Positions 1 through 2,374 of a DNA stretch of 22,008 bases are shown piece after piece (the stretch's first letter is position 1; each line of letters begins with the position of its first letter). The translations under genes and the position numbers were made by a program. The DNA is from Candidatus Hydrothermarchaeota archaeon. GTDB taxonomy: Archaea > CAYFZR01. The DNA lies in assembly GCA_046760505.1 (NCBI GenBank), contig JBHIEG010000025.1:1-22008 (forward strand), given 5' to 3'. The notes below the pieces were generated by a model. The model was not told the DNA's origin. It ran no database searches and saw only the letters and a list, made by a program, of their open reading frames with translations.

Positions 1-100
1 AAGGTAGATGAAGGATCATAAAACTCAATCTAATCCGTCTTTAAATCCTCGATTGTTGCCACAGGTGTTGAGCGAAATTCACTCCGCCCCGCCTCTTAAA

Positions 101-116
101 AGAAAATTTTTAAAAT
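101..116 (+). promoter_or_regulatory. BRE/TATA-like promoter of the cassette ORF
   Basis: AGAAAA-TTTTTAAA; the TATA-like box ends ~24 nt before ATG at 138, consistent with a leaderless archaeal transcript. Confidence 0.5.
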
Positions 117-137
117 GTATAACATTCAAATTTGATT

Positions 138-569
138 ATGAGCAAAATAAACAAGTCAATATATATTGAAGTATCAACAGAAAAAGTTTGGGAACTCCTG
201 ACGGATCTTGATAAATTTCATGAGTGGGCTCCAGTCAAGATGAGATTAACCTTTGAAAAACAAGGTTTAGGTGCAACTTATCATACTACTGGAAAATTTT
301 TTGGAATGAATTTTGAGATAGATCAAAATTGTGTAGAGTGGGAAGAGAACAGGAGATGGAGCTATACTATGTTTTTTGGGAAAAAAGAAGCTAAACTAAC
401 ATGGATTCTTGAACCATATCAATCTGGAACTAAATTAACTGAGATATTCGATTATGAGTTACCTTATTCTTTTTTTGGGAAACTTATCGATAAACTGATA
501 TTCAGAAGATATATTGGGAAAATGATGGAGAAAGAACTGGAAGCTTTGAAATCATTATTAGAAGAATAA
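138..569 (+). CDS. SRPBCC (START-like/polyketide cyclase) family protein
   Basis: SIYIEVSTEKVWELLTDLDKFHEWAP N-terminus, VEWEENRRWSY, and C-terminal helix ELEALKSLLEE are typical of SRPBCC. ATG at 138 preferred over TTG at 132. Confidence 0.85.
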   Translation: MSKINKSIYIEVSTEKVWELLTDLDKFHEWAPVKMRLTFEKQGLGATYHTTGKFFGMNFEIDQNCVEWEENRRWSYTMFFGKKEAKLTWILEPYQSGTKLTEIFDYELPYSFFGKLIDKLIFRRYIGKMMEKELEALKSLLEE

Positions 570-631
570 AATTTTTCGGCGGGGCTCCGTGAACTCTCGT
601 TCGCTATCGGTCACTCGGTGCTATCACATTC

Positions 632-712
632 ACTTAACACGGTGTGTGCAGTTCGTCATGCTCACTCAAGTTGCTCCGCTCCGCAACTTCACATGCACCG
701 ACACCGTTATGC
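632..712 (+). other. attC-like integron recombination site
   Basis: R'' ACTTAAC (632-638, RYYYAAC), 5-nt spacer, L'' GTGTGCAG, variable region with perfect hairpin AAGTTGC(668-674)/GCAACTT(683-689), L' ATGCACC, 6-nt spacer, R' GTTATGC (706-712). L''/L' pair 6/7 after removing one extra base. Length 81 bp is within the usual attC range. Confidence 0.68.
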
Positions 713-754
713 TAAACGACCTTACATTTCGACTTTAATCTTCCTACCTTTTTT

Positions 755-1552: not shown

Positions 1553-1760
1553 CTGAATTTCCACTGAAATCCGGTTATGATCTTTACTCTCATACAACTT
1601 AATAACCTAGGAGATGAGGAAATGTTAGGAAAACTCGGTAGAAGGTATATATCCTCCATCAAAATTGACTCGTAATTCTCCCTTACTTCTCTAATAATAG
1701 GAAAATAAAAATAGAATCAATAAAAAAAATGTGGGATATTTTTTCCTGCGCTAGTTTTTA

Positions 1761-2315
1761 TTACGCTAGTGGTATCACAGTCCTCTGGAATTCTGTATTT
1801 ACAAGTATCGCGCCTGCTATGTAAATCGCTAACAATCCTAGTATGGTTATCTCCCATCCAGTTACCACTGCTGAGAATCCTATGGCGAAATGCAAGTCAA
1901 GCAATATGAATGCCAGGATTAACAGCCAGAACAACAGTGTTAAGAACTTGCCATGTTTGATAACCGCTATACAGAAAGGAATCGTAAAGAACGTCCACAT
2001 CAGGAAGAATCCGAATAGACCCATTGGCTTGGTAGCAACTTCACCCCCCGGAAGGGTAAACAGCAATATGAAGAGTGACCACCAAAATGCCCCGTATGAA
2101 CAGAATGCGGTTCCAGGGAATAGTGCACCTCTCCTGAATTCAATTAGTCCTGCAACGAACTGAGCGGTCCCTCCAAAAGCGAGGGCCATAGCAAGTGTAG
2201 GTCCTATTCCCCAGTAGCCAACGTTATGCAAGCCTGTAGCGGTAGTAGTACAACCGAAACCCATCAGCCCTAGTACTGCTGCAGTTGCCCCAAATGGTTG
2301 CGGTGCTTCTGCCAT
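1761..2315 (-). CDS. Acetate uptake transporter (SatP/GPR1/FUN34/YaaH, AceTr family)
   Basis: About six hydrophobic segments; LGLMGFG, GGTAQFVAGLIEF, TAFCSYGAFW motifs; GGAGGTG SD sequence. Confidence 0.88.
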   Translation of the reverse strand: MAEAPQPFGATAAVLGLMGFGCTTTATGLHNVGYWGIGPTLAMALAFGGTAQFVAGLIEFRRGALFPGTAFCSYGAFWWSLFILLFTLPGGEVATKPMGLFGFFLMWTFFTIPFCIAVIKHGKFLTLLFWLLILAFILLDLHFAIGFSAVVTGWEITILGLLAIYIAGAILVNTEFQRTVIPLA

Positions 2316-2374
2316 CTTTTCACCTCCCTCAAGTTATTCTAAAAATTGACATTATTGAATGTTACTTTTTTAGA

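Follow-up and report, generated by a model that had tools for sequence, protein, structure and literature searches.

The stretch of DNA analyzed here, called the window below, is the first 22 kb (22,008 nucleotides) of contig C25 (JBHIEG010000025.1) of a Candidatus Hydrothermarchaeota archaeon (assembly GCA_046760505.1), whose genome is held in 142 contigs of 2.17 Mb. The contig carries genes for tRNA-Ala, L37e, Sm and MinD, and the nearest named relatives of its MinD are only 58% identical. At the left end of the contig, positions 67 to 712 comprise an open reading frame (ORF) enclosed between a GTT-type core and a structured element, and the reading of this segment as one mobile gene cassette is well supported by the comparisons described below. 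The initial annotation had described it as an integron-type cassette with an attC-like site of 81 bp, and the three motifs that it named were recovered at the same places: GTTGAGC at 67 to 73, ACTTAAC at 632 to 638 and GTTATGC at 706 to 712, the last two delimiting an element (632 to 712) that is indeed 81 bp long. The region from 578 to 712 has a G+C fraction of about 0.5, compared with 0.3 to 0.35 in the flanking sequence. The parts of the cassette are as follows, where C numbers alone are contigs of the source genome and G numbers are other genomes.

67 to 73, plus strand: GTT-type core GTTGAGC, the left cassette boundary and presumed crossover point, at which homology with other cassettes starts.
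71 to 93, plus strand: start module, the 3′ strand of an outer stem, complementary to the cassette's own end at 578 to 605 and kept after the GTT core of other cassettes.
94 to 137, plus strand: A/T-rich leader, common by alignment to the cassette starts of G247:C39, G006:C15 and the source genome's own C94 and C126; its promoter-like composition suggests a promoter role.
138 to 569, plus strand: cargo ORF (ATG at 138, TAA at 569) encoding a 143-amino acid SRPBCC protein (Polyketide_cyc2) of the ligand-binding fold that matches PF10604.
572 to 576, plus strand: T-run directly 3′ of the stop codon, read from the sequence, a possible archaeal terminator.
578 to 605, plus strand: end module, the 5′ strand of the outer stem, which pairs with 71 to 93 and recurs before other family sites.
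606 to 631, plus strand: partly decayed remnant of two small hairpins, H1 and H2, recognized from alignments; full-length family members carry both 5′ of the AAC box.
632 to 638, plus strand: inverse core ACTTAAC, read from the sequence, which fits RYYYAAC.
639 to 650, plus strand: 5′ arm of the main stem, from folds; the family stem has 12 pairs, 10 of them changed on both sides.
650 to 670, plus strand: conserved 21-nt box inside the hairpin, the best sequence-conserved part of the family, with zero mismatches to the degenerate pattern.
668 to 689, plus strand: inner hairpin H3 (668 to 674 with 683 to 689), from the fold; four of its five pairs are changed on both sides in the family.
694 to 707, plus strand: 3′ arm of the main stem, from folds, with a 2-nt bulge at 699 and 700 and several pairs non-standard in the family register.
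706 to 712, plus strand: GTT-type core GTTATGC, the right boundary, which misses strict GTTRRRY at one position (fifth base T).
624 to 729, plus strand: full covariance-model match, 54.5 bits with model R2 (window left out) and 80.7 bits with model R1 (window included).

The cargo protein matches PF10604 over its full length, with residues 1 to 142 aligned to profile positions 1 to 142 at 67.9 bits (cut-off 27.4; E 1.5e-18). In the predicted hairpin, positions 639 to 645 pair with 701 to 707 and 646 to 650 with 694 to 698, leaving the bulge at 699 and 700, and the inner helix is formed by 668 to 674 with 683 to 689. Folded alone, the element (625 to 715) is modestly more stable than its shuffles (z −1.7 and −1.9), and an RNA fold of the plus strand from 565 to 730 gave a z of −2.43. 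Because folding of the single sequence is this weak (z −1.7 to −2.4), the single sequence does not settle the matter. The complementarity counts in the initial annotation were reproduced, the reverse complement of 67 to 76 matching 629 to 638 at eight of ten positions and the reverse complement of 706 to 715 matching at seven of ten. Rfam at gathering thresholds and ARAGORN detected only the tRNA-Ala at 2496 to 2572 and gave no match at 570 to 730.

Comparison with other genomes was more informative. A BLAST search of positions 1 to 760 against the source genome returned a partial copy of 583 to 639 on C94 and the remnant of an SRPBCC paralog on C126, and a search of 40 relatives returned 75%-identical matches to 614 to 709 in two distant archaeal genomes. 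The aligned relatives share one layout: an AAC box, a stem whose arms have diverged yet remain complementary, the 21-nt box, the inner hairpin and a GTT box. A degenerate pattern of the 21-nt box produced 24 matches in 21 of 401 archaeal genomes, against eight matches for a reversed-pattern control; on inspection about one third of the pattern matches were due to chance, and clear family elements were present in approximately 13 genomes. Since even a strict pattern returned about one third chance matches, covariance models were used instead. Model R1, built from nine copies including the window, uncovered many diverged copies in the pattern-positive genomes. Model R2 drew on 49 sites from other genomes, with the window left out, and matched positions 624 to 729 of the window at 54.5 bits (E 3.5e-10 for the window and 3.5e-8 genome-wide), the next match in the window scoring 8.8 bits; R2 is not fully blind to the window, as the family was seeded from two genomes similar to it, while most of the 49 members come from arrays found later. 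In a scan with R2, 22 of 151 archaeal genomes contained a family match at E ≤ 1e-7, and the family is common to distant archaeal families. The window element belongs to a family of structured sites present in many archaea.

The family structure is supported by covariation. In the 49-site alignment, which was fitted to the model so that structure statistics are favoured, 90.0% of cells pair, compared with 65.2% after shuffling and 31 to 54% with slid partners. Changes on both sides of a pair occupy 205 cells, against 63.4 in the shuffles, and none of 500 shuffles reached 205. Of the 17 model pairs, which form the 12-bp stem and the 5-bp inner hairpin, 14 have changed on both sides. Of 47 family sites, 43 have an AAC box (18 in the strict form RYYYAAC) and 42 a GTT box (11 in the strict form GTTRRRY). 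The family consensus places the stem about 1 nt from the AAC box and about 4 to 5 nt from the GTT box, and UUCG-type hairpin loops are frequent. The canonical attC architecture that the initial annotation proposed did not hold up in this register: the stretches it took for spacers are base-paired in the family, its 5/8/7/6 parse is not the register that covaries, and a canonical pattern of extrahelical bases is not apparent.

Three observations agree in placing the left boundary at the GTTGAGC core. BLAST homology with the paralog on C126 begins at base 67, that is, at the front core, and on C126 a sequence that looks by eye like the 3′ half of a family site stands before the same core. Alignment shows that the first 25 nt behind the core, like the A/T-rich leader, recur in conserved form behind GTT cores in G247, G006 and C94, where the cargo is unrelated. 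The two ends of the cassette are complementary to each other, 86 to 93 pairing with 578 to 585, 78 to 82 with 589 to 593, and 71 to 76 with 600 to 605 in a duplex of −19.7 kcal/mol; the inverted repeat formed by 78 to 93 and 578 to 593 (81% complementary) was found independently by a repeat finder. In the comparison of cassettes described next, the window end module scores −20.4 kcal/mol with its own start, versus −7.6 kcal/mol with the adjacent start. The left boundary at 67 to 73 is therefore real, because homology starts at the core, the start module is conserved and the start is complementary to the cassette's own end. The right site has the attC-like folded form and the left boundary the GTT-type core that the initial annotation ascribed to them, in an archaeal contig.

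Pairing of a cassette's two ends is a property of the family. Among 32 cassettes each bounded by two sites, the mean pairing energy of the end module was −13.27 kcal/mol with the start of the same cassette, −8.37 kcal/mol with the adjacent next start and −8.36 ± 0.44 kcal/mol with permuted starts; none of 20,000 permutations reached the own-end mean, and the own start was the best partner of all 32 in 11 cassettes. Since own start and own end pair, the crossover divides the site, which reaches about 25 nt beyond the core. The functional site runs from about 578 to 712 and includes the cassette's own first 25 nt or so, and is not the 81-bp element of the initial annotation. The same pairing points to a circular form in which an outer stem would enclose the two small hairpins and the core hairpin, with crossover at or next to the GTT core. 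The window end module is also found, nearly unchanged, ahead of family sites elsewhere: in C94, in G247:C39 and, accompanied by other cargo, in six distinct metagenome sequences. The last come from a scan of metagenome contigs for a 16-nt word of the end module, which found 118 stretches; among the 80 loci returned, nine (the six distinct sequences) adjoin a family site and the rest are chance matches.

Arrays are seen in other genomes, where successive sites share a strand and are separated by one or two ORFs that mostly have the orientation of the sites. A contig holds up to eight sites: eight each in G006:C15 and G247:C39, five in G247:C28 and three in G224:C14. Cargo varies between the units of an array, and the family element always follows an ORF. 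In the source genome R2 detected five further sites with scores near or above 40 bits, on C74 (61.3 bits), C65 (47.7 bits), C94 (42.8 bits) and C40 (40.0 bits), and weaker ones on C52 and C4. They lie on separate short contigs, mostly of 2.7 to 12.6 kb, with two sites on C94 and two weak ones on C52, and by eye a ribosome-binding-like stretch and an ATG follow shortly after the copies on C74, C65, C40 and C52. No relative of the SRPBCC cargo was found in the metagenome scan or in 11 carrier genomes, where an empty search answer is no proof of absence, so the same cargo could not be demonstrated in a second context.

We searched the carriers for recombinases with the IntI model TIGR02249 (cut-off 265 bits) and the archaeal XerA model NF040815 (cut-off 220 bits). 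No integron integrase above the TIGR02249 cut-off was found in any of the 28 carrier genomes (the source genome, a first set of 11 and 16 others), and the best TIGR02249 matches in the other carriers are split in two, skipping roughly profile positions 180 to 232. The best TIGR02249 match of the source genome is a 274-amino acid XerA on C5 (154.9 bits for the whole protein, 81.3 bits for the best single stretch), which is the only XerA of the genome and scores 266.6 bits with NF040815. In the first 11 genomes, six of nine full-length XerA-type genes lie within 0.2 to 4 kb of a site. In the 16 further genomes, examined afterwards, three of ten XerA-type loci adjoin a site, two of the three being decayed genes. 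Overall, XerA-type recombinases stand beside sites at 9 of 19 loci, and the chance of adjacency per locus, by our own estimate from hit density, is about 0.01 to 0.07.

Seven recombinases were tested further, five of them array-adjacent and two not, and all pass NF040815 with 225 to 264 bits. The best solved relative of the array-adjacent enzyme of G002 is the Vibrio integron integrase VchIntIA (PDB 2a3v; 161 bits), and a stretch of 60 residues in VchIntIA is represented by 20 in the G002 enzyme, which thus lacks the IntI insertion of about 40 residues. At two of seven loci the start module of the first cassette, located as a perfect 15-nt or 14-nt complement of the end module, follows the stop codon of the recombinase gene at a distance of about 100 and about 170 nt; the other five recombinase-adjacent loci gave no convincing complement to the end module of the first site. 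Between some XerA-type genes and the first GTT core (L064, L066, L067 and L092) we recognized by eye dif-like palindromes with arms of about 9 to 11 nt and a 6-nt spacer. In positions 1 to 66 of the window no dif-like palindrome and no similarity to these recombinase-proximal regions was recognized by eye. One XerA-type gene that is followed by a palindrome, in G247:C62, has no family site on its contig. The source genome also has other, non-Xer tyrosine-recombinase genes and fragments, at the end of C30 and on C35, C37, C48 and C58, some with internal stops and one running off its contig end; the contigs that carry them have no family site. Because the same sites lie beside XerA-type recombinases elsewhere, we favour a XerA-type enzyme as their partner, a claim drawn from replicated gene neighborhood to which we give an even chance.

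The best explanation of the locus, which we rate at a probability of about 0.7, is a gene cassette with a structured site of about 135 nt that entered the chromosome as a circle through a tyrosine recombinase, with a XerA-type enzyme as its suspected partner. The cassette would once have been a circle, in which the end and start modules paired and closed a four-helix structure around the site, presumably folded as single-stranded DNA. A tyrosine recombinase, cutting at the GTT core or beside it, would then have inserted the circle into the chromosome, and the start module would thereby have come to lie at the opposite (5′) end of the cassette. The cassette may be the last unit of an array that continues beyond the contig end, or a solo insertion. 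The enzyme could be the genome's own XerA on C5 or a XerA-type enzyme supplied by a donor.

Several observations weigh against this explanation. Some concern the enzyme: no recombinase gene lies on the window contig, as the initial annotation had noted for the part in view; R2 found no family site on C5, the contig of the XerA gene; and the C5 XerA scores only 154.9 bits on the IntI model, versus 187 to 230 for the seven tested recombinases. Seven of the ten XerA-type loci of the replication set are not beside a site, and eight of its 16 carriers lack a XerA-type match at E ≤ 1e-15. Most of the genomes are fragmented metagenome-assembled genomes (MAGs), in which an IntI gene could be unassembled. 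Others concern the site: the window holds one site only, and R2 found no second one in the 22 kb to the right of the cassette, which accords with the earlier proposal of a last cassette or a solo one; the 66 nt that precede the core resemble neither the family model nor the rest of the source genome; and the window stem is degenerate in the family register, where several of the 17 model pairs are non-standard. A slipped register restores 12 pairs. The initial annotation was right to suspect a divergent site, and the site may be decaying and no longer active. The fitting of the 49-site alignment to its model counts here too, as does the assembly: contigs from sequencing runs (described below) break repeatedly between positions 791 and 2527, none of those listed spans the whole stretch, and it is the MAG contig that links the cassette to the core genes.

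The strongest rival is an ordinary IntI-dependent integron cassette, either the last cassette of an integron or a remnant in a cluster of attC sites lacking integron integrases (CALIN), with the integrase unassembled, lost or residing in another cell and the XerA-type genes being bystanders or cargo. AAC and GTT boxes, an imperfect hairpin and arrays of alternating ORFs and sites are hallmarks of integrons, and the fragmentation of the MAGs would hide an integrase. In Ghaly et al. 2022 (PMC9668308), archaeal integrons are mostly CALINs with few IntIs, archaeal attCs were recombined by bacterial IntI1, and attI lies directly downstream of intI, a layout like that seen here beside XerA-type genes. 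The absence of a TIGR02249 match above cut-off in all 28 carriers, with best matches that skip positions 180 to 232 or so, speaks against this rival, as do the lack of some 40 residues of the IntI insertion in site-adjacent recombinases and the replication of XerA-type adjacency at three of ten loci in an independent set of genomes, for each of which we estimate a chance expectation of about 0.01 to 0.03. The site itself also fits it poorly, as it reaches about 25 nt past the crossover and its spacer geometry is non-canonical. We consider an ordinary integron cassette unlikely, and the dependence on IntI implied by the initial annotation finds no counterpart in the source genome or the 27 other carriers, which have no IntI-type integrase and whose array-adjacent recombinases are of the XerA type.

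Integrons are the textbook system of gene capture one gene at a time, and were believed to require a dedicated integrase with an extra domain that reads extrahelical bases of the folded site. The element in the window differs from the canonical definition in three tested respects: its split site, its spacer and bulge geometry and the kind of recombinase that lies adjacent. In the family, a cassette's two ends remain complementary to about 25 nt past the core, which adds an outer stem and two extra hairpins; in attC the shared bases number 6, and the canonical site ends 6 to 7 nt after the crossover. The family stem abuts the AAC box, with about 1 nt of unpaired spacer there and 4 to 5 nt on the GTT side, whereas a canonical attC has a central spacer of about 5 to 6 nt on both sides and two extrahelical bases on the bottom strand; the canonical extrahelical-base pattern is missing; the cores fit the strict consensus in a minority of sites (RYYYAAC 18/47, GTTRRRY 11/47); and the neighboring recombinases lack the IntI-specific insertion. 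As in integron cassettes, the first bases of the cassette are complementary to its own site and not to the preceding one. Further likenesses to integrons, those of Ghaly et al. (PMC9668308) included, are a promoter-poor ORF ahead of an imperfect hairpin that bears inverse AAC and GTT cores, structure kept over sequence, co-oriented tandem arrays, a boundary at the GTT core and contigs that mostly carry an array but no integrase; in its position directly behind the recombinase gene, the insertion point resembles the archaeal attI. That study reports integrons in 75 archaeal MAGs from nine phyla, including 3 to 4% of Hydrothermarchaeota genomes, with 539 attCs, six IntIs that have the IntI-specific domain and mostly CALINs; it places attI just downstream of intI and describes the recombination of nine archaeal attCs by bacterial IntI1 (PMC9668308). 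The window element may be among the sites of that study.

Two further systems invite comparison. The Vibrio cholerae repeats are attCs of a sedentary chromosomal integron, longer than 100 nt, highly similar within a lineage and arranged in long arrays with cargo mostly of unknown function; their integrase is IntIA, an enzyme with the extra domain, and each site stops a few bases beyond its core. The family resembles them in having sites longer than 100 nt that are highly similar within a lineage and stand in long chromosomal arrays of cargo mostly of unknown function, and differs from them in being shared between distant archaeal families and in its split outer stem. IMEX elements (integrative mobile elements exploiting Xer) at dif and the pdif modules of Acinetobacter plasmids are small modules without an integrase of their own that are moved by the chromosome-dimer resolvase. 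A Xer-family recombinase beside the insertion point and, at some loci, dif-like palindromes recognized by eye may be features in common with these modules. Known Xer modules use duplex dif-like sites of 28 bp, whereas the family has a folded multi-helix site with covarying arms, and we know of no demonstration that XerA acts on such folded sites. The likeness of the palindromes to dif is judged from the account of archaeal XerA/dif in a review (PMC8371274). In the literature searched, which did not include the supplements of Ghaly et al. that may hold family sites, we found no report linking XerA to attC-like sites or cassette arrays. A tentative interpretation, to which we would give slightly worse than even odds, is that these cassettes constitute a second type of archaeal cassette platform beside the classical integron: they would be moved by XerA-type enzymes through a four-helix site of about 160 to 190 nt that is split by the crossover, carry their own complementary ends and possibly dock at dif-like sequences, and their chassis of start module, promoter-like leader and end module would circulate among distant lineages and have reached a non-reduced vent archaeon of 2.2 Mb with only a housekeeping XerA.

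A function in the transcript, with the element as a 3′ untranslated region (3′ UTR), a terminator or a device for pairing between the 5′ and 3′ UTRs in RNA stability or regulation, is very improbable. UUCG-type loops, the RNA fold of 565 to 730 (z −2.43) and the constant position of the element after an ORF would suit it, and pairing of the ends could in principle act within an mRNA. The start module, however, lies upstream of the promoter-like leader and so would fall outside the mRNA, and homology with paralogous and foreign cassettes starts exactly at the core. The same end and start modules accompany unrelated cargo in different phyla and in metagenomes, the sites cluster beside tyrosine-recombinase genes, and there is no Rfam match.

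To the right of the site the window encodes a matrixin-like peptidase and a YaaH-family transporter (opposite strand), followed by tRNA-Ala(GGC) at 2496 to 2572. A genome of the same genus (G001/G401) is syntenic with the window from base 2499 on, at 88% identity. Beyond its tRNA-Ala R2 found no family site (best 9.6 bits), and it has no peptidase, no transporter and no SRPBCC ortholog (best SRPBCC protein 29 to 30% identical). Because this sister species lacks the site, the peptidase and the transporter, bases 1 to 2495 are a variable region, with the cassette at its outer edge next to tRNA-Ala. Stable synteny of the SRPBCC gene among relatives, the pattern that the initial annotation set against a mobile cassette, was not seen in the sister species. 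Before the tRNA-Ala breakpoint was recognized, comparison of the two genomes at DNA level had given only a 30-nt match in a ribosome-binding region. A search of positions 1 to 2700 for a direct repeat of the tRNA-Ala 3′ end was negative. In the same-genus genome (G401:C42, L118) synteny ends at the tRNA-Ala 3′ end, and three unrelated ORFs of 229, 286 and 347 amino acids stand where the window has the transporter, the peptidase and the cassette. The ends of the source genome's C98, C100 and C7 match parts of the transporter gene region (window 1664 to 2332) at 87 to 94% identity, and this region seems to be present in the samples as several strain variants.

Four hydrothermal-vent sequencing runs (X1 to X4) hold the stretch as contigs. 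In X1 to X3 a contig covers positions 1 to 791 or 1 to 609 without difference, and one X4 contig covers positions 1 to 194 with its last 194 bases and reaches 2249 nt to the left of the window. The breaks in the run contigs fall at 791, 1685 to 1830, 2013 to 2093, 2237 and about 2500. No joint skipping 67 to 712 and no circle junction was found among the run contigs, which drop rare variants and so are silent on excision. That the first 800 or so bases are an assembly or binning artefact, coming from another organism such as a small DPANN archaeon with arrays of this kind, would be in keeping with the state of the MAG (5.67% estimated contamination, 142 contigs), with the location of its other sites mostly on contigs of 2.7 to 12.6 kb and with run contigs that break at 762 to 791 and beyond, none of those listed spanning the stretch, and is nevertheless scarcely credible in view of the agreement of three of the four runs over 1 to 791 or 1 to 609, the 30-base overlap with the next piece at 762 to 791, as expected at a branch of a strain-variable assembly graph, the fact that other contigs of the bin carry the SRPBCC paralog and modules related to those of the cassette, and the variability of the region up to 2495 as a whole.

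The window adds to the family a carrier with a 2.17-Mb genome from hydrothermal-vent samples. For this organism the cassette would represent a route by which a larger vent archaeon and small symbiotic archaea exchange genes. If the cassettes are driven by XerA, cassette capture evolved, or persists, on the housekeeping machinery of dimer resolution, which would bear on the origin of integron integrases from Xer recombinases and would explain why most archaeal "integrons" lack an integrase. The complementarity of a cassette's own ends provides a computational signature by which cassettes and crossover points can be delimited, and the identity of the enzyme is not needed for its use.

Some copies in other genomes depart from the simple series of ORFs and sites. 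Pairs of sites about 100 nt apart with no ORF between them occur at G127:C25:2460–2580, G307:C1:641–966, G307:C45:33673–33986 and G247:C28:3856–4184. The pairs are nearly identical in three genomes of different families and lie near XerA-type genes, and the second site has no matching 3′ arm. In G002:C32 (L068; 1988 to 4388, minus strand), the cargo of the first cassette behind the XerA-type gene is a complete restriction-modification pair, made up of an N6/N4 DNA methylase and a CfrBI-type endonuclease.

Two copies in the source genome are rearranged or appear to be. The second site on C94 (L026; C94:2483–2560), which is truncated or rearranged, is 88% identical over 57 nt to the window end module and hairpins and also matches the C74 site in its 5′ arm, after which the similarity stops abruptly. 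Contigs of runs X1 and X4 carry this C94-type variant, and they are loose ends at window base 625 and not an alternative allele. On the minus strand of the 1885-nt contig C126 (L025) the SRPBCC paralog is broken: a 75-amino acid N-terminal piece is followed by a gene for a 254-amino acid UbiE/COQ5-type methyltransferase, then by a remnant that matches SRPBCC residues 101 to 142 at 69% and by a second methyltransferase gene. Other sequence appears to have taken the place of the central part of the SRPBCC gene.

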